Source of the DNA: a virus | Lineage: Duplodnaviria > Caudoviricetes | IMG/VR virus record: IMGVR_UViG_3300029286_000011 | Reading direction: 5' to 3' (one strand) | Length of the DNA: 64,000 nucleotides | Part shown: positions 1 to 63,999 of the stretch, in pieces | Position numbering within the stretch: position 1 is the stretch's first letter | Layout of the letters: each line of letters opens with the position of its first letter | The notes under the pieces: generated by a model | Told to the model about the DNA's origin: nothing | Seen by the model: the letters and a program-made list of their open reading frames with translations, nothing else | Database searches by the model: none | Position numbers and translations under genes: made by a program

Positions 1-447
1 GTTTGCCGAGGGCGCGTGTTTCACATAACAATCTAGGACGTCTTGTGTCCAGGTTGATCCGTCGTAATGCGTAAGGTACAACGTGCCATTGTAGTATTCG
101 CCGCCTATAAGCGTTGTGACATACACCACAACGGCAGCGCCATTTATACCGACAGCGCCAGAGGCGCCTTGAGCCCCTTGCGGACCGGCGACACCGTTCA
201 GGCCGTTTAAGCCAGGCACGCCCTGTGAACCTTGCGGGCCGGCTGCACCAGAAACAGCAGCAGCTAGATCCACAGGAGGTATGGCGCTCAGACCGCTGGC
301 GTCGCAGTCAAAGATGGCTTCTGGCGGATCGGGCAGTTCGCAATTGGTGATATCGGGAATCACCTCGATTGGCTGTACGGCAGGAACCTCACAGTCAGCC
401 GGGTCAAACACGGGATCAAAATTGTATGGTCCGCCTGTATAGCCCAT
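1..447 (-). CDS. Collagen-like virion fibre protein (3'-truncated by the window edge)
   Basis: Not in the ORF track. Hand-translated from ATG at 447: MGYTGGPYNFDPVFDPADCEVPAVQPIEVIPDITNCELPDPP...GPQGSQGVPGLNGLNGVAGPQGAQGASGAVGINGAA..., open to position 1. About 12 G-X-Y triplets. Starts 1 nt after the stop of the upstream gene. Confidence 0.8.
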   Translation of the reverse strand, partial: MGYTGGPYNFDPVFDPADCEVPAVQPIEVIPDITNCELPDPPEAIFDCDASGLSAIPPVDLAAAVSGAAGPQGSQGVPGLNGLNGVAGPQGAQGASGAVGINGAAVVVYVTTLIGGEYYNGTLYLTHYDGSTWTQDVLDCYVKHAPSAN

Positions 448-448
448 A

Positions 449-1408
449 TCAGTTCTCGCCGTAACACACTGCCATGCCCTGCATATTCACAGCCACGGTT
501 ATCGTAGCCGTTACAGGGTCGAACTCTATCTGTACACCGTCGCCGCCTACCAATGAGATAGTCCTGCCGCCCACACCATTGACGGTACGCAGGACTTCGT
601 TACACATAGGACTACCATCGAGTGTAGAGGCAAACTCTGGAGCCTGTTCTAGCTGAAATACAGGCTGTTGCTCACACGGGCTTACCTTATCGTTGTCTAC
701 GTCAGCGCTGACCGTGATGCTGTTATCAACAGAGTTCAGCTCTAGCCTGCAATAGATGCCCTCCTGCAGTCGAAGATCACCACACATGCCTATCTGTCGT
801 GGCCATATGTCTTGAGGCGTTACTGGCCATACGACAGCAGAGCAATCTTCATCAGTTTCAAATCGTGTCCTATCCTCGTTAGCTATGCTGACACTGCGAG
901 CGTAACTTGCCACAAGATTCTGAACTACACCAGGCTCTATGATCATGGTGCCTGTCAGGCTGTTACCGTCTGTCAGCAGCGCTGCCAACTCGGCAAGATT
1001 ACCAAAGACAACGAACCCTTCCCAGCGTACGTCGTCTATCGTATCGCCGGTCGATAGGACAGATTCTGAGATCTCTAGCGGCACAACCTCAGAGACAGGC
1101 TCTTCTTCGTCAGTGTCAGCTTCGACAAATACAGGCACGTACACTGGATCAGAAAGACTTCGGCTAACTTGGAACACACCTTCGTTGAGCCCAGGTGCGT
1201 CCGAGTAGAAGCTGAATACAAACGTATCACCGGTGCGTGCTACGCTTGCCAGCCATATGCTATGAACAGCGCTGTCAAATTCCGATAAGACACCAGCTAT
1301 AAAGCCTGCGTCCACTATCGTTGAATCCGGCACGAAACATGACGACACTTCTGTGAAAGGCCATGTTCGATTTGCGTTGGTGTTATACCAGCCGGCTTGT
1401 GCTTGCAT
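449..1408 (-). CDS. Tail/baseplate-associated protein, paralog family member (N-terminal W..N..R.[WY]PF motif)
   Basis: 319 aa ORF in a tightly packed operon. WYNTNANRTWPF and later blocks align by eye with ORFs at 1419, 2740, 4416 and 11097. Confidence 0.7.
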   Translation of the reverse strand: MQAQAGWYNTNANRTWPFTEVSSCFVPDSTIVDAGFIAGVLSEFDSAVHSIWLASVARTGDTFVFSFYSDAPGLNEGVFQVSRSLSDPVYVPVFVEADTDEEEPVSEVVPLEISESVLSTGDTIDDVRWEGFVVFGNLAELAALLTDGNSLTGTMIIEPGVVQNLVASYARSVSIANEDRTRFETDEDCSAVVWPVTPQDIWPRQIGMCGDLRLQEGIYCRLELNSVDNSITVSADVDNDKVSPCEQQPVFQLEQAPEFASTLDGSPMCNEVLRTVNGVGGRTISLVGGDGVQIEFDPVTATITVAVNMQGMAVCYGEN

Positions 1409-1418
1409 TGCAGAAGTC

Positions 1419-2246
1419 TCACCGAATGCTGTTTAGCTTTTCGCCCACAACCTCAATAAGTAACCCCTGCGCTGTAGAGCGGATACGCAGGATGCTATCT
1501 TCAGCGTCCTGATTGCCTACAGTGAGCTTGAAGTCGCCGTATTGATCCGGAGAACATACAAGGCTTCTCGACGCATCTTTGACAGTGATGGTCTTGATAT
1601 GCCTAGGTGCAACAAATAGCCCTGTACCTAGTCGCCTGTTGAATAACGGATCACCAACAACGTCTATACGAATCGCGCTCAACACCTGTCGGGCCGTACC
1701 ACCCACACCTGCAGGTATTACAGCCTCCTGCGCAGACAATACAATCCCAGCGCCGCCAACAAACCAGACATCGCCTGTTACCAACGTACCGTCATCCAGT
1801 AAGAAACCACGCAGGCCTATTTCTGGTGTAGGTATGCAGCAGCTGGCAACGAACTCAGTTTGATCTTGCTCAAAGCTGAATGCACCAGTACCCCAGGTCT
1901 GGAAAATGGCTAGCCTGTTGGCCTCAGATACTAGCACACCTGCAGCTCGTCCGTAGTAGTCGAACAATGGCAATACGTCAGGCGGGCTCAACAGTGTGAA
2001 GCTGCCGTAGGCTCTAGTGGCTGTAGTTGAATCACCAATAACGATGCGAACTTCCTGCTGCGTCACAACCACCTGCGATAAATACAAACCGACAGTTCCG
2101 CCTACTGGATGCAGTGCAGCATCCAGAAACGTTGTCTCTGGTATAAAGACACCGCCGTCATTAACCAATGTGGCCTTATCAGAGAACGGGTACTTGGTGT
2201 TCTCTAACGACGGACGGAACTCGGGTTGTAGTATGCGCTCACTCAT
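1419..2246 (-). CDS. Tail/baseplate-associated protein, paralog family member
   Basis: 275 aa. Blocks LENTKYPFSD, IPETTFLDAAL, LYLSQV and VTGDVWFVGG are shared with neighbouring paralogs. Confidence 0.7.
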   Translation of the reverse strand: MSERILQPEFRPSLENTKYPFSDKATLVNDGGVFIPETTFLDAALHPVGGTVGLYLSQVVVTQQEVRIVIGDSTTATRAYGSFTLLSPPDVLPLFDYYGRAAGVLVSEANRLAIFQTWGTGAFSFEQDQTEFVASCCIPTPEIGLRGFLLDDGTLVTGDVWFVGGAGIVLSAQEAVIPAGVGGTARQVLSAIRIDVVGDPLFNRRLGTGLFVAPRHIKTITVKDASRSLVCSPDQYGDFKLTVGNQDAEDSILRIRSTAQGLLIEVVGEKLNSIR

Positions 2247-2731
2247 GCAAATCGCAGGCGTTTGCGAATCTGGGCAGACCTAGCGGCCCTGGTAGTGTCC
2301 ACAACAGCAACCGCAGGCTTGAAACACAGCCCGTACCTGGCAGCCCAGACCTCAATGTCTTTGACATTGTCGGCAGTAAGCGGCCCGTGCGGTTTGATGA
2401 GCTTGGCAGGATCAGTGGCCAATAGAGCCGATATGGACTCAATGCCAGTCTCCCAGACTGCATTACGAGTTGCAGCCGTCACCGTTCGAAGCATATCGTC
2501 CCACAGCTTGTTGATGTCGCCCGGCGGCACAGGCTCACCCGGTTCATCTTCGACATCGTATGCATCCTCTTCCTCAGCCGGCTCATCATCAGCCTCATCA
2601 GCCTCTTCGTCCGCAGCAGCTTGTAGCTCGTTTCGCAACGAGTCTATAGCGTTGGCAGCGGCCTCAGCTTGATCTTCGTCAACGGGCTGTTCAGGATAGC
2701 CTTCTTCAAAATCATCTTCTTCAATTGGCAT
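2243..2731 (-). CDS. Hypothetical protein with acidic N-terminal half
   Basis: 162 aa, D/E-rich, 4-bp overlap with the downstream gene, operon-like packing. Confidence 0.65.
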   Translation of the reverse strand: MPIEEDDFEEGYPEQPVDEDQAEAAANAIDSLRNELQAAADEEADEADDEPAEEEDAYDVEDEPGEPVPPGDINKLWDDMLRTVTAATRNAVWETGIESISALLATDPAKLIKPHGPLTADNVKDIEVWAARYGLCFKPAVAVVDTTRAARSAQIRKRLRFA

Positions 2732-2739
2732 ATGTACCT

Positions 2740-4407
2740 CTACGTGTAAACAAGGTCGCCGCTGTTGGTGAAGACAAATCTGTCAAATATTGTGGTGGCC
2801 TTGTAACTCTCTACACCAAAGCGGCTAAGACTACCGTCCCAGGCTACAGCTGTCGGATCTACGCTACAAAGCAAAGCGCCAGTTCCTGCATTACGCACAT
2901 AAGCCACCACCCAGCTGTAATTGGGATCTTCTGAAGGATAGCAGGCAACGACAACTCTGTACAGCGTATCCAGCGCCATCGCGGGCAACGCCGTGAAGTT
3001 CAAAACCGATAACTGGCCTTGGCTACGTACCATCAAAACCAGTCCACGGGTTCCAACATAAAACCCGTCCCAATCCATTGTCACTTGTATCCAGCGATAG
3101 TCATCATCGACAGACTGTATGCCGAATACAACACTGCCGTTGTTTAGCGTGTTGTTGATGTCATTGGTAAGCCGCATGTCCACAACAACTTTGCGGTAAT
3201 AGGCCGTATCTAGCGGCAGATTCCTGTAGGCCAGATTACGGACGCTAAGCTGTGTTGCTTGTATCGTGCCGCTTACGACAGAGTAACCTCCTAGCAGCGT
3301 TGTCCAGCCCACCAGGGAGGAAAGGTTATCAACCAAGGGCAGCGCCGGGTCTTCCTCTGTCTCCTCCACCTCTGAGTCAATGACGAAGGGATCTAGCTCT
3401 TCTTCATCGATGATAGTGATGGACTCGTCGGATATGGACACACACAGGTCTTCGTACTCGTTGGGCAGCGTGCCGTCGTCGGTAGGTAGACGAGCAGCTG
3501 TAACACACATGTCGCCAAGCCCTAGGCCGCAGTCAACAATGACGCCGCACACATCTTCCGTGCTGACAAGTTCGCCATCGTTGTCCAGAAAGGCCTCCCG
3601 GTGTACGTCAGTGATAACACCACAGCCTGTGAACTCGATGGTAATATTGCCGCTGCAGTCTGGTGTGACGGTGCCAATAGCTTCAACAGGTATCGGATCG
3701 CCGCATGTGTTGCTCTCAGGCCTGTCACCGCACGGACCTTTGTAGATATCAAAGACATTACGCTGCTGGCTGTTGTCGGTATTCTTGAGCCTAATGACAA
3801 TAGCCTCACGCGTTGCAGGGCTCTCGCTGTCACATAGATCGCTAGCAACCGGCACATGCCCAGGTATCTCGACACACTCGCGAACTATCTCTATGTCATC
3901 GCCGCCTATGAGTTTGACAATACCGGTCAAAGCTGTTGATACACCTAGCTTGCCAAACGACTGAATTGGCAAGTCACGGTAGGCTTTGGCAATTCTAGGC
4001 AGCAGTTGTGCCTGGCCTACAGAGGAGCAACGCCATGTACGCAGACCGGACTCTGTTATGTTGTCGCCAAACACTATCCAGCCGCCGACACCGGCAGCCA
4101 GTGGTGTGAGCGCATACTGCTTGTCCTGCATAAACGGACGCAGTATCCGTATAGCAGCCAACGGCACTGGTGTTGAGGGCGCAGTCAGACTATCTACGCC
4201 CAGTATCACTGCGCTTACAACAGAGGCGCCAACGGTTATGCCACTGACATAGGCGTATCTTGCCAACGACCGTGGAAAGCAGATATGCAGATCAGAGATG
4301 ATATTGGTAGGAATGCTGACGCCGGCATCGTCCACTAGCGACGCTAGTTCATCAAACGGATAGCACCGTTGCTGATTAAGCGAGTACCATGCCACATTTC
4401 TAGACAT
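2740..4407 (-). CDS. Tail-associated paralog with acidic linker and C-terminal beta-rich (possibly lectin-like) domain
   Basis: 555 aa. WYSLNQQRCYPFD N-terminus, several Cys, aromatic beta-strand-like C-terminus. Confidence 0.65.
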   Translation of the reverse strand: MSRNVAWYSLNQQRCYPFDELASLVDDAGVSIPTNIISDLHICFPRSLARYAYVSGITVGASVVSAVILGVDSLTAPSTPVPLAAIRILRPFMQDKQYALTPLAAGVGGWIVFGDNITESGLRTWRCSSVGQAQLLPRIAKAYRDLPIQSFGKLGVSTALTGIVKLIGGDDIEIVRECVEIPGHVPVASDLCDSESPATREAIVIRLKNTDNSQQRNVFDIYKGPCGDRPESNTCGDPIPVEAIGTVTPDCSGNITIEFTGCGVITDVHREAFLDNDGELVSTEDVCGVIVDCGLGLGDMCVTAARLPTDDGTLPNEYEDLCVSISDESITIIDEEELDPFVIDSEVEETEEDPALPLVDNLSSLVGWTTLLGGYSVVSGTIQATQLSVRNLAYRNLPLDTAYYRKVVVDMRLTNDINNTLNNGSVVFGIQSVDDDYRWIQVTMDWDGFYVGTRGLVLMVRSQGQLSVLNFTALPAMALDTLYRVVVACYPSEDPNYSWVVAYVRNAGTGALLCSVDPTAVAWDGSLSRFGVESYKATTIFDRFVFTNSGDLVYT

Positions 4408-5928: not shown

Positions 5929-7185
5929 CTATATGGTTACTAGGCCTGGTGTACGTCCTGAGAACTTCAGAAGATTGGCACGCACATACGGGATGTTGTT
6001 GAGCTCGTGCCATGGAGACGGGAAGTAGTTGTACTTACGCACCTCTTGGAACTTCACTGGAGTGCCTATGAAGCGTGCCTGCTCGGCATGAGTCCAATAC
6101 AGAAACGAATTGGCATTCCAGAAGCTGCAATGTGTCGGATCTTGAAACGCACCACGACCATCCGTGCTCGGTGTATCGCTTAACAACCAGCCGTTGGGCG
6201 CTAGACAGCGATAGATCTCTCGCATGGTGACCAGTGGATCGCGCAGGTGCTCAAGAGCGTCACTGGCACGGAATACACCAACAGACCCATCAGGGAATGG
6301 CCACGGTGCGCAATTAAGGTCACGCTGTATGACACCCGGCGCTGGAAGTAGATCGATGCCCGTGAATTGCGCAGCCGGCAAGGGACCACTGCACAGGTCA
6401 ATAGCTTCCAACGAATTGTCCCGACACCAGCGCATAACCAATTCTGGCAGGTAGTGATCGCACATACCTACCGTGCCCTTCTGTATCCAATCATTCAGCT
6501 CCAGCCCTGCTGAGCTATTCTCGTCATGGTGATGCTGTATGTACAGACACTTGTCGATGTGGCGTACGTTACCAGACACGTATGTGCGGCATAGAAGGTC
6601 TTGATCATCTAGCGCCGGCAGCAGCGGATCGTGTCCCATTATCGTGTTGTAAAACGAGCTACGCCAAGCTCTGACATGGTTGGGCGCATACCATATGCGC
6701 GAGAAAGACGCAGGCGATGGTGGAAACGCAACAGCCTCCGCAAGCGCACGGCCTTCCCACTCAAACTGACGATACTGCCAGCCATGCTCGCTAGGGTACA
6801 ACACAGGGCTGCCATCTTGATTGACGTCACACCAGTTCGAATAGACAAAATCGATGCCAGGTTCAAACGCCGCGTACAGCTCTGCCAGTGCATTTGGTGT
6901 CAGCTCATCATCGTGGTCGACTTCAACCAGGAATTCGCCAGAAGCTAGCTTACAGCAGAACTTCTTTAGCGAGCCTATACCTGTGTTTCCTGCCGCGTCA
7001 AAATCAATGCACTTTATGTGTTGACAACCGCTGGTCGCCAACAAGTTTCGAACATCGATTGCCTTGGCATCTTTGTTAGCAACGACAACCCACTCAAAGT
7101 CCTTGAATGTCTGTCGCGACAAGCTCTGCGCTAATCGCCGAATATTGGCAGGATTATGCGTAGGCGTAAAGATACTGAATCGCAT
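5929..7185 (-). CDS. Glycosyltransferase family 2 fused to a class I SAM-methyltransferase-like domain
   Basis: GT2 hallmarks: FSIFTPTHN, QTFKDFEWVVV, VEVDHDDEL (DxD-like), DDQDLLCR. C-terminal IDLCSG...DLN..PWPFPDGSV...DALEHL...EIYRCLAPNGWL is Methyltransf_11-like. Confidence 0.85.
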   Translation of the reverse strand: MRFSIFTPTHNPANIRRLAQSLSRQTFKDFEWVVVANKDAKAIDVRNLLATSGCQHIKCIDFDAAGNTGIGSLKKFCCKLASGEFLVEVDHDDELTPNALAELYAAFEPGIDFVYSNWCDVNQDGSPVLYPSEHGWQYRQFEWEGRALAEAVAFPPSPASFSRIWYAPNHVRAWRSSFYNTIMGHDPLLPALDDQDLLCRTYVSGNVRHIDKCLYIQHHHDENSSAGLELNDWIQKGTVGMCDHYLPELVMRWCRDNSLEAIDLCSGPLPAAQFTGIDLLPAPGVIQRDLNCAPWPFPDGSVGVFRASDALEHLRDPLVTMREIYRCLAPNGWLLSDTPSTDGRGAFQDPTHCSFWNANSFLYWTHAEQARFIGTPVKFQEVRKYNYFPSPWHELNNIPYVRANLLKFSGRTPGLVTI

Positions 7186-39370: not shown

Positions 39371-40282
39371 TCAGGCATAGCCAGATCCAAGAGATCCTCG
39401 GAATAGCTTGGCATTAAGCTCGACCTTTTTGTAGCGAACAAAGTCGTGCCATTCTGACTTGAGGGCAGAGGCCAGCTGAATATACTCTCCGTTCTTGTCC
39501 TTGTCATTGATGACAACACCGGAGGCACTGGCACCAAGCTTATTGCGCATATAGTGGTGTACGGCAATCATCAGAAGCTCAGCAACAATGGCCTTAAGCC
39601 AATGTTCTCTGAACGGAAAGTTCTTGCAGTTGTAACGGGCAATCGGCGGGGGCTCTTCATTCCAATATCGAATAGGTCCTAGAATAGCCGACACGATCTC
39701 GTTGTCATCGAACTCAACGTCTTGCAGAAGATCGTTCTCAACACCTGTGTCCCGCATCCGTATACGAATCTCTGACAATGACGGCGGTCCTACTCGTTGT
39801 TGAATATCACCGAAGAGTGACTCTTCAATCGACAGCAAACCACTGTTCAAGACAACAATATCACCGGCAGCATTCTTGACGGCCACATTGACCCTATAAA
39901 TACCAGCGATGTCGTAGATGGCCCTAGGTATGGCAAAACTGATCTGTCCGGAAGAAGCAGCTGAGAACTCACCAGTTGCAGCGATTATGCGACCACCTGC
40001 GCAATCGGCAATTCGCACATCAACACTTGCCGTATCGGCATCTTCCGATTCGCTAATAGAATCGGACACTGTAATCAAGCTAGACAGATCGACAGGTGCA
40101 CCGCTCTTGTCACGTACTAGCCAGGTAACAGTGCTAGCTACGCCTTTATCACCAAGGACAACGGGCCGTTTTGTGTTGATAGGGCAGCCTTCGTGCGTTG
40201 GCACATTAGGCTGTATCGTAGACGACAGCGGAAGACCTGCATCATCAGACGGCTGCGTTACCTGTGTACCTGTGACGGGCAT
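39371..40282 (-). CDS. Head-tail adaptor/neck protein
   Basis: 303 aa. Ig/BppU-like N-terminus and 'SEIRIRMRDTGVENDLLQDVEFDDNEI...YWNEEPP...NFPFR' C-terminal adaptor-like domain. Confidence 0.6.
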   Translation of the reverse strand: MPVTGTQVTQPSDDAGLPLSSTIQPNVPTHEGCPINTKRPVVLGDKGVASTVTWLVRDKSGAPVDLSSLITVSDSISESEDADTASVDVRIADCAGGRIIAATGEFSAASSGQISFAIPRAIYDIAGIYRVNVAVKNAAGDIVVLNSGLLSIEESLFGDIQQRVGPPSLSEIRIRMRDTGVENDLLQDVEFDDNEIVSAILGPIRYWNEEPPPIARYNCKNFPFREHWLKAIVAELLMIAVHHYMRNKLGASASGVVINDKDKNGEYIQLASALKSEWHDFVRYKKVELNAKLFRGSLGSGYA

Positions 40283-43602: not shown

Positions 43603-43708
43603 CCTTCTACACTTGTGACTCATCCATGAGACTAGCCTCCATGCTAAAACAAATGACGTACAGGTAGGACAGGAGCGTATTAGGTTCCGTACGCCTAGTC
43701 TCCTACCT

Positions 43709-43718
43709 ATTATGCCAC
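43709..43718 (-). promoter_or_regulatory. Putative extended -10 promoter GTGGCATAAT (second copy)
   Basis: Identical to 39341-39350; points into a short non-coding segment ending at the 43575 terminator. Confidence 0.5.
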
Positions 43719-43979
43719 CTAAACGGTCTGCCGTTCAGGGGCCGTCGTGTGACCGTACTGCTCCAGCAGCGCGGTCAGCGCCTGTCGCGACGCAAGCTGC
43801 AGGCTCCGAGTCTCCTCGAAGACCTCCGGCTCGCTCATCGCCAGATCGGCCAGCTCGTCGATGTTGATGACAAGCTGAGTGACCTTCACGACGACGTCGT
43901 TCGGGACGTCGTCACAAAGTGCCACCTGCCAGTGCCTATGATCGGCGTCTGGCATTTCGCAGTAAACGTCGAGTAGCAT
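43719..43979 (-). CDS. Hypothetical protein, 86 aa
   Basis: True start likely ATG 43979 (MLLDVYCEM) with AGGAG RBS and an ACTAGCC motif upstream. Confidence 0.65.
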   Translation of the reverse strand: MLLDVYCEMPDADHRHWQVALCDDVPNDVVVKVTQLVINIDELADLAMSEPEVFEETRSLQLASRQALTALLEQYGHTTAPERQTV

Positions 43980-44101
43980 CGTGTTTTCTCCTATTACGAG
44001 GCTAGTTATGCGACACGAAAACGCTGCGTCCCCCATATTCTTTCGGAGGACGCAGCGTATTGGAAGAGAATTTCGCCAGAAAAGTACACAATCTGACGAA
44101 A

Positions 44102-44572
44102 TTATTCTTTGCCAGCTGCCGATTTGGCCCGCTTTGTGATCACGGACCACGCAAAATTGGACAATGCTTTTCCTATGTGCCAGCAAACGAATACCGACAC
44201 CAGTAAGGCACCTAGAGTGCATAGCGAATCGTCACGATTCGAGCCCTCGTTACGCACTACGGCTCGCGTACGAAGGCCGTCCTCCTCTGTTAGAGCCTTG
44301 ACGCTAGAGAAGCGTCCGTTCAGCTCTTGGTTGTTGCTGCTGACGTCAGTAGACAAGTTGTCTAACTTGGCCGATAGGGTGACCAGTCGAGCATCTAGCC
44401 CGCTCATGCGGGCTGCCAAAACGTTGGCCTCATCGCTGATCTTGCCCATCAGCACGTTCTGACCGGACACGACTTGCCCGGTTGTGCGGCCAATGTAGCT
44501 TGCCAGCAGCACAGAGAACAACGCAACAACAACGAGAATTACGGTGGTGTGAATAGCGGACTTGTCATTCAT
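44102..44572 (-). CDS. TM-coiled coil-TM membrane protein
   Basis: 156 aa with hydrophobic N- and C-terminal helices, a heptad-like middle and a basic tail. Confidence 0.7.
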   Translation of the reverse strand: MNDKSAIHTTVILVVVALFSVLLASYIGRTTGQVVSGQNVLMGKISDEANVLAARMSGLDARLVTLSAKLDNLSTDVSSNNQELNGRFSSVKALTEEDGLRTRAVVRNEGSNRDDSLCTLGALLVSVFVCWHIGKALSNFAWSVITKRAKSAAGKE

Positions 44573-44608
44573 CTTGAATCCCCTTGGCTAGTTAGGGCTA
44601 GAGCAAAC

Positions 44609-45184
44609 TCACGAACGTACGGTCAGCTTCTTAATAAGCTGCCATATCTTACGCGACAAGAACTTTAGTGCGTGCCAGCTAACTAGCACGCCGATAAGCA
44701 CGGCAACAGTGAACCATGGAATCTCTTCCGTGCAGGTAACGACATGGTATCTCAGATTGCTTATCGAATCCTTCTGAGACACCAGTCGGTCCAGAATCCG
44801 GTAGTCATGCTCATGAGCCTCCTTCGAAAGAGTCTCGACCGATTTCTGCAGCTGCATGATCATGTCGACCGGAGGTCGTTGATCACGGAGAAGCTTTTTC
44901 ATCTCCTCGTGATCCTCGGCGTATACGCGCGCCGAGTTCTTCAGAAGGTTCTCTAATGCCGTCAACCGGCCTAGGACACTGTACACCTCGTCCAGCACTT
45001 TTTGATTATCGCTGGTAGGTGCTTTGACCGTGTCCGACGGCGCAAACACAGCCGGTGTGATGCAGTCCACGGCGCGATGTTCGCTCTGCTTGAGCCTTTC
45101 AGGCTCACTAGGTGCCAGGGCGTAAAAGCCCACGGCCACCAGTGCCATGACCAACACGACGAACAAGATCTTTTGAGTCTTCAT
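44609..45184 (-). CDS. TM-coiled coil-TM membrane protein
   Basis: Start ATG 45184 (MKTQKILF) with AAGGA RBS; same architecture as its neighbours. Confidence 0.7.
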   Translation of the reverse strand: MKTQKILFVVLVMALVAVGFYALAPSEPERLKQSEHRAVDCITPAVFAPSDTVKAPTSDNQKVLDEVYSVLGRLTALENLLKNSARVYAEDHEEMKKLLRDQRPPVDMIMQLQKSVETLSKEAHEHDYRILDRLVSQKDSISNLRYHVVTCTEEIPWFTVAVLIGVLVSWHALKFLSRKIWQLIKKLTVRS

Positions 45185-45226
45185 GAAACATTCCTTTTGG
45201 CTAGTGACGTGATGACAAAACATACG

Positions 45227-45616
45227 TTACGCTGATTGCTTTGCTGCCAACTCTGCTCGTGCCGCCTTCCAGGCACGAATTATGTTGCGTATGCACAGGT
45301 ATACGCCCATAGCAGATAGTATCAACACGGCCGTATTCCATGTCGATTCCTGTACGATCGTGCGTGTATACACATGATCCGATGTCGCCTCCTTAGAGGC
45401 ATTGGATTGTATCTCGCGCCACTTGGCGGCTGTGCTGTGTGTATCTGCCTGCAGCGTTGTAAGCTGCATTCGCACCTCGTTGATGACCTTGTCTCGCTGA
45501 CGTTCAGCGGACATGATCGAATTCAGTGTACTGGTGTTCGACGACACCAACAGCAGTGTACACAAACTCATGGAGACAGTTGCCGTCATGCAGACGGACA
45601 TGTATTTGCTAATCAT
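45227..45616 (-). CDS. TM-coiled coil-TM membrane protein
   Basis: 129 aa, AGGAG RBS, same architecture. Confidence 0.7.
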   Translation of the reverse strand: MISKYMSVCMTATVSMSLCTLLLVSSNTSTLNSIMSAERQRDKVINEVRMQLTTLQADTHSTAAKWREIQSNASKEATSDHVYTRTIVQESTWNTAVLILSAMGVYLCIRNIIRAWKAARAELAAKQSA

Positions 45617-45649
45617 GACATCTCCTAAGGCTAGTTAGGTGGTGAAAAA

Positions 45650-45772
45650 CTACTGGCTGAGGGACAGCAGGGCCTGCGCCCCGCAGTAAACCGTCCCGGC
45701 CAGAATCAGAAGCTTGACCACCGACATGGCGATCACAGACACCACGCTATCTACGTGAGCTGACTTACGCAT
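45650..45772 (-). CDS. 40-aa single-TM small protein (not in ORF track)
   Basis: MRKSAHVDSVVSVIAMSVVKLLILAGTVYCGAQALLSLSQ*. AAGGAG RBS overlapping the upstream stop. Confidence 0.6.
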   Translation of the reverse strand: MRKSAHVDSVVSVIAMSVVKLLILAGTVYCGAQALLSLSQ

Positions 45773-45774
45773 GT

Positions 45775-46764
45775 TTACTCCTTAAAGAGGGCGGGTAGTA
45801 ACTGAACGGCTAGCTCCCGGCTGAGATGCAGCCGGAAGGGTTCGTTGCTGATGATCCCATGTTGAGGGCCGCGCCCAGGGATCTCAGCGACAGTTTCACG
45901 CAGGTCGATACCGTCGTGTAGGGCGGTGAATATGACCTGCTTGGTAGACAGTCGGGATGCAATTGCACCCTTTGTGCTGATGACGACCAGCACATCTGCA
46001 TTCAGGTCGACAGCCGTGGCCTGTAGAATGTGGCTGTCGAACTTGTCGCTGACGTTGGATACGTCCAGCACGGCCCATCGGCGGTCGTACACCGTCGAGA
46101 TGCGCATGCTGTCCAACACGTCTAACGTGTCCCGCACCACAACGTCGTGGTTCAGCGCCATGACATTCAGACGCTTCTCAGCTTCGCGGCCAACCAACAT
46201 GTCCACAAACAGCTGGTAGGCTTCCTGATGGCCGCGCGCATCTTCGCGCTGCAATACGGCCGTCGACCTAACGAATAGCTGGCCGATATCTGAGAAGAGA
46301 TGCAGCTTGGCCGCATAAGACGGCCCGTCCAGCCGCATCGCATCCTCAACCAAATCGACGTAGGTGAGGCCTACGGCGCGCAGTGCTGCAAACAGTCCAT
46401 CGCCGTCGGCGTGAGCGATGATCACATCTTTGTCGCCGATGCAGCCGATATCGATCAGCTGGGCACAGGCTAGAGCGTTCTTACGGGTGACACACAACGC
46501 GTCTACTAACGGCCGTGCCCGTATTAGCTCGTATACGTCATCGTACAACTCGCTGCCGGTATCTGGTTTGTGATGGTCACGTACCATCACCTTGTGCTTC
46601 ATCGCTAGGTCTGAAATCAGATCATGGCACACCACTGGCGACAGATCGGCTATCAGAACCTTGGAGGCACCCTGGCAGCATCGGATCAGTACCGACGATA
46701 TCTGTTCGATTTCAGACGGCTGGACGAACATCGCCAGCGTCTTACGAAGCATTAACGAAAACAT
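45775..46764 (-). CDS. DHH-family phosphoesterase-like protein with rearranged motif order
   Basis: VLIADL, VRDHHK, then IIAHADGDGL. TAGGAG RBS. Confidence 0.55.
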   Translation of the reverse strand: MFSLMLRKTLAMFVQPSEIEQISSVLIRCCQGASKVLIADLSPVVCHDLISDLAMKHKVMVRDHHKPDTGSELYDDVYELIRARPLVDALCVTRKNALACAQLIDIGCIGDKDVIIAHADGDGLFAALRAVGLTYVDLVEDAMRLDGPSYAAKLHLFSDIGQLFVRSTAVLQREDARGHQEAYQLFVDMLVGREAEKRLNVMALNHDVVVRDTLDVLDSMRISTVYDRRWAVLDVSNVSDKFDSHILQATAVDLNADVLVVISTKGAIASRLSTKQVIFTALHDGIDLRETVAEIPGRGPQHGIISNEPFRLHLSRELAVQLLPALFKE

Positions 46765-46795
46765 GAAAAACTCCTAGGCTAGTGTTGCGATACAT

Positions 46796-46836
46796 AAAAA
46801 AGAAAGACCGACCGGCGTTTGCCAAGTCGGTCTTTC
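46796..46836 (-). terminator. Intrinsic terminator
   Basis: 11-bp stem GAAAGACCGAC/GTCGGTCTTTC followed by TTTTTT on the minus strand. Confidence 0.8.
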
Positions 46837-46857
46837 CGTGGCGACCTCTGAGTCGGC

Positions 46858-47691
46858 CTACAAGTCGGAATACTTATAGTCGGCTAAGAACGCCAACGCC
46901 GCCTCGCGGCGTTGCGTAGTCGGTTCGTACAGGAACCGGTGCGCCGGACTATCCGACGAAGTATTATGGTTCGACCAGAACGTCCTCAGGTCGAATCCAG
47001 ACTCGGCCATAATGGCTATGTAGTCGTCTAGCCACAAGCCTGCACGCCAGCAGGCTAGCGCATGTGACGATACGCCGTCGCCGGTGTAAATGGCCGGCAT
47101 CATGATGCCTCCATCTTGCTGACGAATAGCCAGCAAAGGGAAGGCCGAAAACGACGTCATGGCCGTCAGAAGAATCTGACAGAGCCCGGCTGCTGGCAAT
47201 GTTGTAGACGCCGGCAGCTGCGCTCCAATGGCCCACAGATCGTTCTGAAGACGGGCCATTGGGTTGTCCTCGAACTTGACCTCGTCGGTTTCCGGGTCAA
47301 GTAGCATGGCATGGCCGTCCGTGACCACCGCATGTACCTGATTGCCAATCAGGCACACCTGTCGCTCTTCCGCCGTCATGGCAGCCAGCTTGGCCATCAG
47401 CTGCTCATGATCATCGAGCCTGTCATGCGACGGCACGGACCCCGTAAGGTCCGTCAGCGGAATGTCCAGACAGGACCAGTTGTTCTGATCCATTGTACGG
47501 ACAACGTCCAGTGAACGACTGCGCATGACAGCCCTGGACAAAGCTGTCAGCGCTTTTGGCAGCATGGTCCTTGGCGCTTGCTGCTGGCTTCTTTCCAAGC
47601 CAACGAGCTTCTCCACCAGCACCGGCATATTGACGATGCTGATGTTCCAGGGCCACCCAAACGGGCGTTCCTTCGCAAGCTTCATACTCAT
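46858..47691 (-). CDS. Hypothetical protein
   Basis: 277 aa, AAAGGA RBS, no recognisable family. Confidence 0.65.
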   Translation of the reverse strand: MSMKLAKERPFGWPWNISIVNMPVLVEKLVGLERSQQQAPRTMLPKALTALSRAVMRSRSLDVVRTMDQNNWSCLDIPLTDLTGSVPSHDRLDDHEQLMAKLAAMTAEERQVCLIGNQVHAVVTDGHAMLLDPETDEVKFEDNPMARLQNDLWAIGAQLPASTTLPAAGLCQILLTAMTSFSAFPLLAIRQQDGGIMMPAIYTGDGVSSHALACWRAGLWLDDYIAIMAESGFDLRTFWSNHNTSSDSPAHRFLYEPTTQRREAALAFLADYKYSDL

Positions 47692-47715
47692 TCCTTTACA
47701 CTAGTGAGGGCTAGT

Positions 47716-47760
47716 AAAAATGGCCTCCGGACGGATCACTAGCCTAATCCGCCGGAGGCC
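47716..47760 (-). terminator. Long hairpin plus U-tract (terminator-like) with GGCTAG in the loop
   Basis: Minus strand GGCCTCCGG-CGGAT-TAGGCTAGTG-ATCCG-T-CCGGAGGCC-ATTTTT. Confidence 0.7.
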
Positions 47761-48020
47761 CCACACCACAAAACTCAATAATAGCGCCCTGTTCTGGCTC
47801 CTATGGCCAGCACTCAGGGTCTGTTACCACGGAGTAAAACTGCAAGTTAAGAACGAAGCTAACACACTGGATACCTGTAGGGCAGGCCGGTCAACCGCAA
47901 GCGGTCCACATTTATCGGCGTTCGTTGCCCTAACAGGCTCCAGTGCCAGCGGCAGGAGCCACCGCCGTTGCGACCCCTGTGTAACTTTTTTGCCGAATTA
48001 CACAGAGGTAAGCGCTCCTG
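47761..48020. ncRNA. Candidate structured non-coding RNA (continues into the 47716-47760 hairpin)
   Basis: About 300 nt with no credible ORF and five further hairpins (47787-47819, 47874-47886, 47894-47905, 47936-47960, 47977-48005). Confidence 0.4.
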
Positions 48021-48022
48021 AA

Positions 48023-48319
48023 CTACACTCCGTCGTTCCACCAGGCCTGCTGGCTCGGTAGCCACGTGGCCTCCTCGCGCCACGTCCGTCCACCGTTGAC
48101 GTTATCACCGCCCCTGGCCACAAAGTGCGCCGACTTTGACGGGTCGATCACGCGAACAAGGTCCGGACCCGAAACGAATCCGTTGTCGCGGACTCCTTCG
48201 GTGACGCAGTTGATGCAGCAGAACACTTGACCCCAGCAGGCACCGCTGCCGAAGTAGGAGCGGCCGTAGATGTGCCCTAACTCCCGCGTCAGGACTACCT
48301 CTTGTACGTTCGTTGACAT
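48023..48319 (-). CDS. Hypothetical protein, 98 aa
   Basis: Start ATG 48319 (MSTNVQ) with AAAGGA RBS and ACTAGCC motif. Confidence 0.6.
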   Translation of the reverse strand: MSTNVQEVVLTRELGHIYGRSYFGSGACWGQVFCCINCVTEGVRDNGFVSGPDLVRVIDPSKSAHFVARGGDNVNGGRTWREEATWLPSQQAWWNDGV

Positions 48320-48357
48320 CGCAAAATTCCTTTGGCTAGTGACTATAAACACAAAAC

Positions 48358-48556
48358 AGACCGAAAGGTCTGATAATTGGCGCCTGCCGCAAGTAGGGAG
48401 ACCTACGGCAGGTTCGTTGCACAGGTACCGTAGCAGGCCTGGAGTTATCCAAGCCTCCACAGCGTAAAAGCAACGAAGGACTGCAATGCCGGACTGCAGT
48501 CATAAGATGGCAGCGACCTCAGAACTATGTCCGGTCGCCGCGTATTAAGGCGGTAC
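48358..48556. ncRNA. Candidate structured RNA or leader
   Basis: Hairpins at 48358-48371, 48383-48412, 48435-48456 (enclosed by an 8-bp helix 48413-48420/48470-48477), 48479-48501 and 48513-48538. Confidence 0.45.
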
Positions 48557-48588
48557 TAAGCTAAAGTCGATATGCCAAGGAGATTGGA

Positions 48589-48614
48589 AGATGTAATTAG
48601 CGCTAATTACATCT
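48589..48614. repeat. Intergenic palindrome, copy 4 (26-bp perfect)
   Basis: AGATGTAATTAGCGCTAATTACATCT between the capsid-operon terminator and the accessory region. Confidence 0.97.
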
Positions 48615-48691
48615 CTGATCCGTGGCAGCGACGATAGCTAGTTAGCGCCTCCAATATAGTATGACGCGTTTTGGGCCTTTATTTACCAATG

Positions 48692-48729
48692 AAAAAAGCC
48701 GGCAGGTGCCTCATGCACCCACCGGCTTT
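48692..48729 (-). terminator. Intrinsic terminator of the capsid operon
   Basis: AAAGCCGG..GGTGC/GCACC..CCGGCTTT followed by TTTC on the minus strand, just after the 48748 gene. Confidence 0.8.
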
Positions 48730-48747
48730 GCCAACCTTCCGTGGTTG

Positions 48748-49101
48748 TCAGACGCGGTATTCCATCTCCGAATCGGTCAGGCTCGTAAGCCAGCACGGTG
48801 CGGCGACAGCCAGCGTGTTGTTATTCAGCACGAGCATCTGGGACTGATCCAGAGTAGCATCGTACAGAATAGGAGCAGGAGTCGACACAAGCTCAAGCCA
48901 CCCAGCTTCGAGGGCCTCGAAGAACTTCTGCACGCCACGGGCGCCGAAGATCCGACCAATGGTATCGACGACATGGCCGCTAATCGAGACTTCCTCGTTG
49001 TTGTCCAGCTCAGCCCCGTGGGGCGGCACAATGCTAATCTTGCGCTTCGAGCCGGCAACATTGCGAATGGTGGACACCAAACAGCTGATATCAACAGCCA
49101 T
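48748..49101 (-). CDS. Small virion-associated protein
   Basis: 117 aa, CACGGAGG RBS, last gene of the capsid operon. Confidence 0.65.
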   Translation of the reverse strand: MAVDISCLVSTIRNVAGSKRKISIVPPHGAELDNNEEVSISGHVVDTIGRIFGARGVQKFFEALEAGWLELVSTPAPILYDATLDQSQMLVLNNNTLAVAAPCWLTSLTDSEMEYRV

Positions 49102-61236: not shown

Positions 61237-63999
61237 CTACCCAATTCGGCCGATGGGCTTCGGCGCCTCGGGCAACTTTGGCTTAGCAGCAACCTGTGTA
61301 GCAGGCGCCGTAGTAGGTGCAGACATAGGCTTCGGTGCAGCAGGAGCCACCCAACCTTGTGGGGCTGTCTGGGCAAATCTGGCCTGAAAATCTGTATCCG
61401 GATTGGCCTTCAGAAACTCCTGCGTAGGCATATGTTGCTGCAACTTGTTGTCGTAATACCAGCTATCGTCTGGAGCTGTGTTGTAGAAACCTTGCAGCGC
61501 TTCTCGTGAATATGGTGTTCCACGCTGCTGTTGCACATGCTGTAACTGTGCTTGCCCTTGCTGCACGCCCCTAGCTGCCCCAACGGCATTTCCAACCTCT
61601 TTGCTAGCTGCGTACGCCTCTCCAGGCAAATTGATCAAGGAGCGTATGGGCTTCATATTGGCGTTTATCGCTGCGCCTGCGTAGCTGAGCAAACCATTAG
61701 TTGGATCCTTGAAACCTAGAATAGTATTGTCTGGTGTCACATCATTCATAAACTTCTTGTGATCGCTCCAGCCAAATCCTGTTTCTCTCTTGCCGCCGAG
61801 CATCTCCGGTAACAAACCAACACCGTCGACAAGTTCCAACGCACCATTTATAGGCGTAGCCCATAAACTAGCCGTGCCACCAATTCTTTTAGCAGCGGCT
61901 TGTCCAAGTAAGCCCATGCCAGTTGAGGCTGCCGCCGATGGAGCAACAGCCGCAGTCACAGGCAGAATGTAATCAGTGAAGCCCGGCTTAGGCGGTGGCA
62001 CAGTAGGAGGCGGCACAGGAGCAACGGATTGCTCAGCTGGCGACTGTGGTGCATCGGACTGCTCGTTTATAGGTTGCCTTGGTTGCACAGGTTGTGGCTG
62101 CGCAGGTGCGGGCTGAGGCTGTACGGGGGCTGGCTGTGCCACTGGCTGAGCAGCAGGTTGTGCGGGTGCCGGCGGCTGTACAGGTGCTGCAGGTTGCGTA
62201 GTGTCAGGTGTTAACGGCTCTGTCGGCGTAGCCGGATTACCGCTAAACAGCATATCTTGAGCTGCAGACGGGTTCATCATGGCCATGAATAGCATCTGGC
62301 CTAGTGGTCCCATCTTCTCTAGCAAAGGCAACAGCATCGGCATAATGCCGGCCATTGAGAAGCCCTGGCCGTCATTTTGTTCCGGCATCAACTCTGCAGC
62401 AGTCTTTGGTGCAGCCAGTTCCGCAGGTGTGTAATCTCTTGGCGTTCGTACCTTGCCCTTGCCGATTTGACCTGTGGCCAGCGCAGGTACAAAGCTAGTG
62501 CCCATAGGATCGCTGATAGCACCTCGTTGCGCACCCTCAAGTACGCTGCCCTTCAGACCGCTGCCAAACATGCGTGTAAGCCAGTCTGGATCATGCTGCA
62601 AATTAGCCATGCCGCGAATCATCTCTGGTTCAAACGGCGGCGGATCGGCATGAACGTCGATGTTCTCCACGCCAAACTTCTTCAGCTGTTTGACAACACT
62701 TGGTCGTATCTTGGTGCCAATCGAATAATGCAGATATGGGCGTTCTAGATACTTACCAACTGCTCGTGCGGTTGGCAAACTATCGTAGCCATCTCGTGGC
62801 CGATACTTCTTCTCAACAACGTCATAAGGCACAACGTCATCAGGAGCCAAGTCGTCGAGTTCGTCAGTCAGTCTGACGTGATTTATGAGACCCTTGGCCA
62901 ACAGCTCTATGTTTCGACGATGCCCGCCGATACGGGCATTGGCATAGGCCTTCCTGAAGGCATCAAGAAAGTAACGTCTGCCTTCACCAACACCTTTATG
63001 CTCTGTAATGACAGCTGGGTTGGGCTCACCCTCGCTAAGCATGTCACCGGCTTCTATGTTATCGCCAGGCTTAACGACAGGTTCGAAGCCTTCGCCTACA
63101 TAGTGCTTGGTGCCATCGACGGATATGTACTTACCACCGGCTGGTGCAGGGTCGATGGACTCAACATGACCATCAACAGTGGCATGTACAGCGCCGCCTT
63201 TGAAGGTCTTAGGAACCTGCACAAGCTGATTGATCCAATCAAAACCGGAGATAGCTGCAGAGCCACCAGCACCAGCTACACCGCCCGTATGCTTGCTCGA
63301 ATTAGACACAATCAGACCATTGGCAAGTACGAAAAGGTGATCTTCGTGTGCCACTTCTAGGTCATGTGTATACTGATGACCGATAGCAATCTGCTCTTTC
63401 CTGTACAGTCTGTTACGCGACGCAGTAGGTCTAGGTCTCCATGTGGCCAAACAAGCTACCAGCGTGTGTCTCTTAACACCGTACAACGGGATATTAGCGG
63501 CAAACTTTAGCAGGCTGTCACGAAATGTGATTACGAAGCTGTAAAGAACGTGCTTTCGCTTATCCGCCCCGCTAGGTTTTGGTATAGAGGCATATATGCC
63601 AAAACGCCATTCCAGCAGCTCTTTGACCTGCTCTACAAGTCTTAGTGATGTTGATCCGAATGAGATATGTACGGCCCCTCCTTTTGCTTTATTTTGCTCG
63701 GATACGTACACAGACCCATCTGTCACCATCAGTCCGGCTATCAGCTCTGCCACAGACGCATTGTTCCAGCTGTAAGCCTCGTGAGGTATGATCTTTTCGT
63801 AGGCATATTTACCTGCCATTCCGTACCGCACCAGCATTTGCATTGCTGGATTTCTATACGATCCGTTAAATCGACCAGTTGTGGCATCCTGAGCTGTACG
63901 TGCTTGGTCAATCTGACTTACTCGATAATAGCCTCGCTGACCGGCCAATAGGGTAGTCTTCAAGTTCAGCGCGGATAGGCGTGGCGCTATATCGGTAAT
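61237..63999 (-). CDS. rpoC: DNA-directed RNA polymerase beta-prime subunit, C-terminal part, intein-containing, with about 390-aa low-complexity extension (5'-truncated)
   Basis: Frame is open to the window edge. After the intein: SKHTGGV (trigger-loop His region), VKPGDNIEAGDMLSEGEPNP..ITEHKG, RRNIELLAKGL and DWLTRMFGSGLKGSVLEGAQRG. These align by eye with bacterial beta-prime regions G and H. Confidence 0.85.
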   Translation of the reverse strand: MTDIAPRLSALNLKTTLLAGQRGYYRVSQIDQARTAQDATTGRFNGSYRNPAMQMLVRYGMAGKYAYEKIIPHEAYSWNNASVAELIAGLMVTDGSVYVSEQNKAKGGAVHISFGSTSLRLVEQVKELLEWRFGIYASIPKPSGADKRKHVLYSFVITFRDSLLKFAANIPLYGVKRHTLVACLATWRPRPTASRNRLYRKEQIAIGHQYTHDLEVAHEDHLFVLANGLIVSNSSKHTGGVAGAGGSAAISGFDWINQLVQVPKTFKGGAVHATVDGHVESIDPAPAGGKYISVDGTKHYVGEGFEPVVKPGDNIEAGDMLSEGEPNPAVITEHKGVGEGRRYFLDAFRKAYANARIGGHRRNIELLAKGLINHVRLTDELDDLAPDDVVPYDVVEKKYRPRDGYDSLPTARAVGKYLERPYLHYSIGTKIRPSVVKQLKKFGVENIDVHADPPPFEPEMIRGMANLQHDPDWLTRMFGSGLKGSVLEGAQRGAISDPMGTSFVPALATGQIGKGKVRTPRDYTPAELAAPKTAAELMPEQNDGQGFSMAGIMPMLLPLLEKMGPLGQMLFMAMMNPSAAQDMLFSGNPATPTEPLTPDTTQPAAPVQPPAPAQPAAQPVAQPAPVQPQPAPAQPQPVQPRQPINEQSDAPQSPAEQSVAPVPPPTVPPPKPGFTDYILPVTAAVAPSAAASTGMGLLGQAAAKRIGGTASLWATPINGALELVDGVGLLPEMLGGKRETGFGWSDHKKFMNDVTPDNTILGFKDPTNGLLSYAGAAINANMKPIRSLINLPGEAYAASKEVGNAVGAARGVQQGQAQLQHVQQQRGTPYSREALQGFYNTAPDDSWYYDNKLQQHMPTQEFLKANPDTDFQARFAQTAPQGWVAPAAPKPMSAPTTAPATQVAAKPKLPEAPKPIGRIG

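Follow-up and report, generated by a model that had tools for sequence, protein, structure and literature searches.

Described systems closest to the element

In virulent Pseudomonas phages, 42 terminators inside 5'UTRs give RNAs of less than 250 nt whose 5' end is that of the read-through mRNAs, from which 29 ncRNA candidates were obtained (Putzeys et al. 2024, PMC10914365); 17 of these come from the jumbo phage phiKZ. The 5'UTR ncRNA candidates of phiKZ appear to be the closest known case to the element described here, a densely base-paired stretch within 64,000 nt of phage DNA (the window, to whose numbering all positions refer unless otherwise stated; it comprises bases 70258-134257 of a 185-kb IMG/VR record rated 89% complete). 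The order promoter, structured stretch of less than 250 nt, intrinsic terminator in the 5'UTR and gene, with one 5' end for the short and the read-through transcript, is predicted for the element as well. The phiKZ-type RNAs were detected experimentally, with ONT-cappable-seq and on northern blots, and close relatives retain them, whereas the element is predicted and private to one phage. It is also longer and far more paired than the quoted 71-nt and 141-nt examples from Pseudomonas phages.

The PeSL cassettes of T4-type phages recur between small non-essential genes in the variable region of these genomes (Arbiol et al. 2010, PMC2839356). They resemble the junction at the terminal hairpin of the element, P5, in that a stem-loop terminator is joined to a short conserved signal. 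Unlike the element, a PeSL is a compact sigma-70 promoter with one hairpin, which leaves the extra 165 nt of hairpins P1 to P4 unexplained, and the likeness, taken as a stem-loop terminator joined to a repeated, putative expression signal, holds for 48334-48372 only and not for P1 to P4.

Type III toxin-antitoxin loci of the ToxIN type consist of a promoter, a structured non-coding RNA, a Rho-independent terminator and a small protein gene, in this order. The element shares this order, with a predicted promoter and RNA, and the phage/defence context. However, ToxIN antitoxin RNAs are tandem direct repeats, of which there are none at the element, and the model of p98, encoded by the gene that follows, is a beta-sandwich and apparently not a ToxN/AbiQ-like endoribonuclease fold, with no PADLOC match. 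A tandem-repeat RNA was rejected as an identity for the element since there are no tandem repeats at 47600-48800 (0 rows in Tandem Repeats Finder at score 30).

The put RNA of HK022 is about 70 nt long, has two stem-loops and acts on the host RNA polymerase. Like the element with its presumed promoter, put RNAs place stem-loops right after a phage promoter and ahead of several terminators, but the element has four or five hairpins over 200 nt and a terminator of its own. The phi29-type pRNA is likewise a phage-encoded structured RNA of similar size located beside head genes; the element differs in having no Rfam match and in being absent from relatives with the same head module. A pRNA-like core assembly part was rejected on the latter ground, none of the related phages with this head module having the element.

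The element appears to be a candidate of a known kind, the phage leader-derived structured RNA, for which no relative was found. With its expression predicted only, it should for now be regarded as a clearly bounded candidate rather than a discovery.

Layout of the locus

All substantial ORFs near the element are on the minus strand. Read in that direction, the locus is composed as follows (energies in kcal/mol, minus strand unless marked).

48748-49101, minus: p117, the last head-module gene, just before the element
48695-48729, minus: strong intrinsic terminator, 15-bp stem and U6, -26.8; closes the head-module gene p117
48589-48614, no strand assigned: palindrome copy, 26 bp, AT-rich, core TAATTAGCGCTAATTA; presumed source of the element's transcript
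48542-48588, minus: 5' linker of 47 nt, with a weak CCAA/UUGG hairpin, loop UCUCC, -1.4
48510-48541, minus: P1, 9-bp stem, 3-nt UGA bulge and 4-bp apical stem; 2 G.U pairs; -17.8 against -12.2 on plus
48479-48501, minus: P2, 9-bp stem, loop CCGGC; 1 G.U pair; -10.7 against -8.4 on plus
48413-48477, minus: P3, 8-bp outer helix and symmetric 6x6 internal loop UUUUAC/ACCUGU; 4 G.U pairs; -35.0 against -22.7 on plus
48463-48427, minus: P3a, 16-bp inner hairpin of P3, loop UAAC
48383-48412, minus: P4, 12-bp stem, pyrimidine loop CUCCCU; 2 G.U pairs; -19.6 against -16.4 on plus
48345-48372, minus: P5 hairpin and U-tract, 6-bp GC-rich stem, loop UUUC, then UUUUGUGUUU
48340-48334, minus: ACTAGCC leader box, 5' of the Shine-Dalgarno sequence
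48320-48340, minus: region with the Shine-Dalgarno sequence AAAGGAA (48333-48327) and spacer, preceding ATG 48319
48023-48319, minus: p98, 98-aa gene, the first of the island; 56 homologues; AlphaFold pLDDT 90.6

P4 adjoins P3 without a linker, and 10 nt separate P4 from P5. The p117 terminator at 48695-48729 probably shields the element from upstream transcription.

Fold, strand and bounds of the element

The element is a real, strand-specific and exceptionally stable fold in a regulatory position. The minus strand of 48600-48320 (281 nt) folds at -112.1 kcal/mol, compared with -77.2 +/- 4.9 in 200 dinucleotide shuffles (z -7.2, 0/200), while the plus strand of the same region reaches -97.3 kcal/mol (z -3.7). 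Measured against the background of the phage itself (638 windows, each 200 nt long and corrected for GC by regression), the 200-nt core 48345-48544 has a z of -4.5 on minus and -1.4 on plus. The lowest z among the 638 other windows is -3.39, making the core the best-folding 200-nt stretch in the 64-kb window. A finer scan shows a structured domain with sharp edges, flanked by the unstructured coding sequences of p98 and p117.

The helices named in an earlier sequence-only reading are all present: AGACC-GAAA-GGTCT at 48358-48371, CCTGCC...GGCAGG at 48383-48412, the 8-bp helix TTCGTTGC/GCAACGAA at 48413-48420/48470-48477 that encloses the hairpin 48435-48456, GACTGCA/TGCAGTC at 48479-48501 and GCGACC/GGTCGC at 48513-48538. 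The dense base pairing that it described is borne out by the shuffles as folding beyond chance. Its possible long-range pseudoknot fares less well. The complementary sequences GTACCG and CGGTAC do occur at 48425-48430 and 48551-48556, but as evidence of structure they are a chance-level 6-mer match, several 6-mer complements being expected by chance per ~250 nt by our own estimate, and the pairing overlaps the base of the inner hairpin.

The sense of the element is minus, the same as that of the neighbouring genes, and the strand is not ambiguous as had been supposed. Besides the difference in z (-7.2 against -3.7), P1 to P4 are each 2 to 12 kcal/mol more stable on minus than on plus, and together they contain nine G.U pairs on minus that become A.C mismatches on plus. 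The terminal hairpin alone, with its GAAA loop on plus, slightly favours plus (-8.8 against -7.9). The asymmetry between the strands and the minus-only G.U pairs suggest that selection has acted on a minus-strand RNA and speak against a cruciform in double-stranded DNA.

Known RNA families and DNA-level function

Rfam 15 at gathering scores gave no match anywhere in the window, with riboswitches, ribozymes, leaders, phage RNAs, 6S, pRNA and Y RNA among the families covered. At E values up to 10, the only matches in 47600-48800 were to miRNA families, fell on the palindrome and on the p117 terminator and are spurious; the element belongs to no Rfam family even at this level. ARAGORN found no tRNA or tmRNA gene in the window. 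The description of the region as an undescribed structured ncRNA or leader fits: the exceptional, strand-specific fold lies between a promoter-like palindrome and a terminator-like hairpin and matches no Rfam, tRNA or tmRNA model.

The same reading also offered an origin-type DNA structure, and a replication origin, packaging, recombination or cruciform site would fit the dense inverted repeats, which border a variable region and have a copy of the dispersed palindrome beside them. Such a DNA-level role is nevertheless very improbable. The region has no iterons and no direct-repeat family, the GC and skew profile is flat, with no AT-rich dip and no skew turn, and there are no direct or inverted repeats of at least 10 nt between the two borders of the island, hence no island-flanking direct repeats. 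Nine of the pairs are G.U-dependent and mismatch on the other strand.

The dispersed palindrome

The palindrome is present in 14 copies in the 185-kb record and in none in the reversed control. Of the 13 other copies, 10 lie 2-45 nt ahead of the start of a minus-strand ORF, often right after the terminator of the preceding gene, which suggests promoter- or operator-like behaviour. The palindrome is thus a putative promoter or operator signal, a promoter function being suggested by its positions. The copy at 48589-48614 is 275 nt away from a start codon and is the sole intergenic copy ahead of a long non-coding stretch. The palindrome core, used as a pattern, had no match in IMG/VR.

Two other sites are related to the palindrome. 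Between the p117 terminator and the palindrome, at 48636-48648 of the window, a 6-of-7 copy of the island box (ACTAGCT, minus) overlaps a palindrome-core half-site, TTAGCGC, and may be an extra operator half-site. Outside the window, a palindrome copy near G000:C1 about 61330-61400 is followed on minus by a hairpin and U-run within about 20 nt, with no gene directly after it; it could be the source of a second, very short palindrome-driven RNA.

P5 and the leaders of the island

P5 is a predicted intrinsic (Rho-independent) terminator, a designation that applies to the P5 hairpin alone. The consensus scan, which asks for 5 bp or more in a GC-rich stem, a loop of 3-8 nt and a U-rich tract beginning within 2 nt, places it on minus at 48372-48357, with 6 pairs (4 GC), a 4-nt loop, the tail TTTTGTGTTT and -7.9 kcal/mol. 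The same scan also picks up the strong terminator upstream at 48729-48695. Additional terminators are found inside the island at 47760-47716, about 46830-46790 and 44058-44021. At -7.9 kcal/mol, P5 is weaker than the other four terminators in the region (-13 to -32 kcal/mol), which agrees with partial read-through. It lies ~240 nt past the promoter-like palindrome and 26 nt before the start codon of p98, and is likely to be the 3' end of an RNA of ~240 nt.

A leader of the form T-run-N(9-12)-ACTAGCC-SD precedes seven consecutive genes of the island, from 43979 to 48319, and in four of the seven, P5 included, a hairpin comes first. P5 with its T-run and ACTAGCC box is the first of these seven junctions. 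The T-run after P5 may serve another purpose, since the leader motif to which it belongs also occurs at genes without a hairpin. In the leader of the 277-aa gene (47709-47699), the T-run directly abuts the ACTAGCC box, and the functional copy may be a second near-box, ACTAGTG, which has the usual distance of 10 nt.

It is possible that the leader acts in cis as a sensor or regulator, either by binding a ligand or protein (riboswitch, attenuator or thermometer) or by modifying RNA polymerase as HK022 put does, and so controls read-through of P5 and of the three further island terminators. The order of parts, from promoter-like signal to structured leader, terminator and gene, is right for this, and the additional terminators would give a processive antiterminator something to overcome. 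This reading is unlikely, however. The fold is of the beads-on-a-string kind with no multi-helix junction, and none of the riboswitch and leader families in Rfam matches at E up to 10. A terminator and an antiterminator that exclude each other at similar stability were not found: P5 competes only with a 6-bp AGGUCU/AGACCU pairing that involves the 5' arm of P4, and this arm is held in a hairpin of -19.6 kcal/mol that would have to melt. Occlusion of the p98 ribosome-binding site by the leader was rejected, the predicted accessibility being independent of the leader (scored over a region lying a few bases off the Shine-Dalgarno core). The riboswitch-like character proposed in the sequence-only reading is not upheld, as the element has no match to a known aptamer, no convincing antiterminator alternative and no homologues that would reveal a conserved pocket.

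The p98 gene and the coding question

p98 is a real gene, and its product is predicted to be a beta-sandwich domain. The protein has 56 homologues besides itself among 1.84 billion representatives. Its AlphaFold model is an all-beta sandwich (pLDDT 90.6), for which PDB offers no significant match, the highest-ranking ones being Ig-like folds of a generic kind (Z up to 4.2). Pfam, PHROG and PADLOC gave no match to p98, and a protein atlas gave a weak lead to FGE-sulfatase fragments (score 0.90, about 95-101 of 256 features in common). The family is built on a rare domain of ~80 aa with the motifs YGxSYFGSGG, DNGF, GGDxIG and RxW. This domain (p98 and P0122-P0177) stands alone or is C-terminal in longer proteins, some of whose N-termini are CxxC zinc-ribbon-like.

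The segment containing the element is non-coding. Two frames are open across it, one that would extend p98 at its N-terminus from GTG 48460, as the sequence-only reading had considered, and a 55-aa ORF at 48503-48336. Translation of either is highly improbable. Conservation among the homologues of p98 sets in only at about residue 12 of the 98-aa protein, near where the short members of the family begin. The start at ATG 48319 is preceded by a Shine-Dalgarno sequence and by the ACTAGCC box common to six neighbouring genes. The 55-aa ORF has no Shine-Dalgarno sequence.

The minimum free energy structure also pairs 48581-48565 of the linker with the ACTAGCC box and the p98 Shine-Dalgarno sequence in a duplex of -12.6 kcal/mol. 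This anti-Shine-Dalgarno pairing was rejected as a candidate, since 16% of all windows match or beat the duplex.

Relatives and the private island

No relative of the element was found by blastn against 50,697 GenBank phage records, and no paralogue is present elsewhere in the same genome. A 20-base pattern from P4/P3 had three matches in JGI metagenomes, which are chance matches in unrelated DNA. A single-sequence covariance model of P1 to P4 found only itself among 41 whole related phage records, from all of which the DNA of the island is absent. Used as single IMG/VR queries, p98, p117 and the capsid protein gave no close relative.

The capsid protein has more than 1000 relatives, the nearest being 66% identical, and its alignment led to 60 related loci in which the order capsid-p159-p117 is kept. 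This set leaves out three contigs with an identical capsid protein. In the 60 loci, a strong terminator follows right after the p117 homologue, with a gap of roughly 10-340 nt to the next core gene, and none of them has p98, the island or the element. The element is missing from the relatives along with the island, and is thus part of a private insertion.

In most relatives (L009-L067), the gene after the p117 homologue matches the 418-aa gene at 5929-7185 of the window, 41 kb off in this phage; in others it matches the 303-aa gene at 39371-40282. With the genes that follow p117 in the relatives sitting elsewhere in the window, the head-tail junction of this phage appears to have been rearranged in addition to the insertion of the island.

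The island itself is rich in structure on the minus strand. The mean z in 120-nt windows is -1.34 for 43700-48600, against -0.18 for the rest of the window, and its coding windows alone average -1.38. Among coding stretches, the 277-aa ORF at 46858-47691 shows the most structure (mean z -2.0). When 200-nt windows are ranked by structure across the 64 kb, 11 of the top 15 fall in the 5-kb island. Part of the fold signal may therefore be an island-wide trait and not that of a dedicated RNA gene. The element is the extreme of a regional trait, and confidence in such a gene is lowered accordingly.

Taken to its limit, this would leave the element without a dedicated function, as the far end of an island-wide richness in sense-strand hairpins (brought along with the donor DNA, or serving to stabilise island mRNAs in general) or as a decayed remnant. 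That the element is private to one phage is compatible with such an origin, which is judged unlikely though among the more serious of the alternatives. Against it, the element is sharply bounded and still far more extreme than any other window of the island, and it is non-coding and lies at a specific regulatory position. The 20 kcal/mol by which the strands differ also suggest selection at the RNA level.

Folds upstream of other p98 homologues

Loci with a p98 homologue were obtained from IMG/VR (four, three of them distinct) and from GTDB genomes (one), with none in GenBank phages. The comparison covers the four other distinct loci, the contigs of the 57 p98-family representatives lying outside it. 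Two of the four, L073 and L077, have a strongly folded stretch upstream with no evidence of coding, of 310 nt (z -9.3) and 230 nt (z -8.6), respectively. In L077, a 66-aa ORF overlapping the fold has no homologue among 5.8 billion proteins, and the span 1499-1699 is annotated as a hypothetical protein, yet it is homologue-less and has a z of -8.6. The single-sequence model of the element matches L077:1521-1645 at 28 bits, 9 bits over the next match in the contig, with four hairpins in the same order and an alike P4 apex. There are six other model matches below E 0.1 in L077. This contig is JAHIVA010000073.1, binned as Patescibacteria, with z of -2 to -5.7 along all of its 4.2 kb (1-4234), and like L073 (2550-3150) it is hairpin-rich almost throughout.

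These loci raise the prospect that the p98 family has an RNA partner, forming with it a recurrent module of structured RNA and small beta-sandwich protein in phage accessory islands. The RNA would then work together with the protein or upon it and be more than a simple leader; the pair might be an RNP, or an RNA antitoxin and protein whose ratio is set by the terminator, or the RNA might be an antidote or decoy. In this phage, L073 and L077, which are unrelated contigs, an apparently non-coding fold of 230-310 nt lies directly upstream of the p98 gene, and in this phage a structured tail of 300 nt also follows p98. The match in L077, with its hairpin order and P4 apex, points the same way. The module is decidedly unlikely all the same. 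A multi-hairpin model fits easily to contigs as hairpin-rich as L073 and L077, the pair counts from two sequences were fitted to the model, and the model finds no match in L073. At the two remaining distinct loci, protein domains fused at the N-terminus take the place of a structured leader. The element lacks tandem repeats of the type III antitoxin kind, and p98 has no match to a nuclease or RNA-binding fold and none in PADLOC. The folds upstream in L073 and L077 are thus a lead and not evidence.

Proposed mechanism

The layout, in which a palindrome is followed by 240 nt of hairpins, a weak terminator, and then a leader and gene, makes a leader-derived RNA the best supported reading. The element is tentatively predicted, at somewhat less than an even chance, to give a structured minus-strand RNA of ~240 nt through premature termination, with partial read-through into the island. 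Transcription would begin at or just past the palindrome copy at 48589-48614, and the nascent RNA would fold into the four independent stable hairpins P1 to P4. Most polymerases would halt at the weak terminator P5 and its U-tract (about 48350), freeing a short RNA expected to be stable and nuclease-resistant. A minority would continue into the p98 leader, with its ACTAGCC-SD motif, and on into the accessory island, which is private and 5 kb long. In this way, the element would both yield a leader-derived ncRNA, which might also act in trans, and attenuate the island or insulate it from the palindrome-driven class of transcription.

Significance

If the RNA is made, few leader-derived RNAs predicted in phages would equal it in length and density of pairing. 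The position of the element at the entry of a private island offers a concrete place to study how acquired genes are walled off or dosed. If the link to p98 is real, the two would represent a new RNA-protein module of phage accessory regions.
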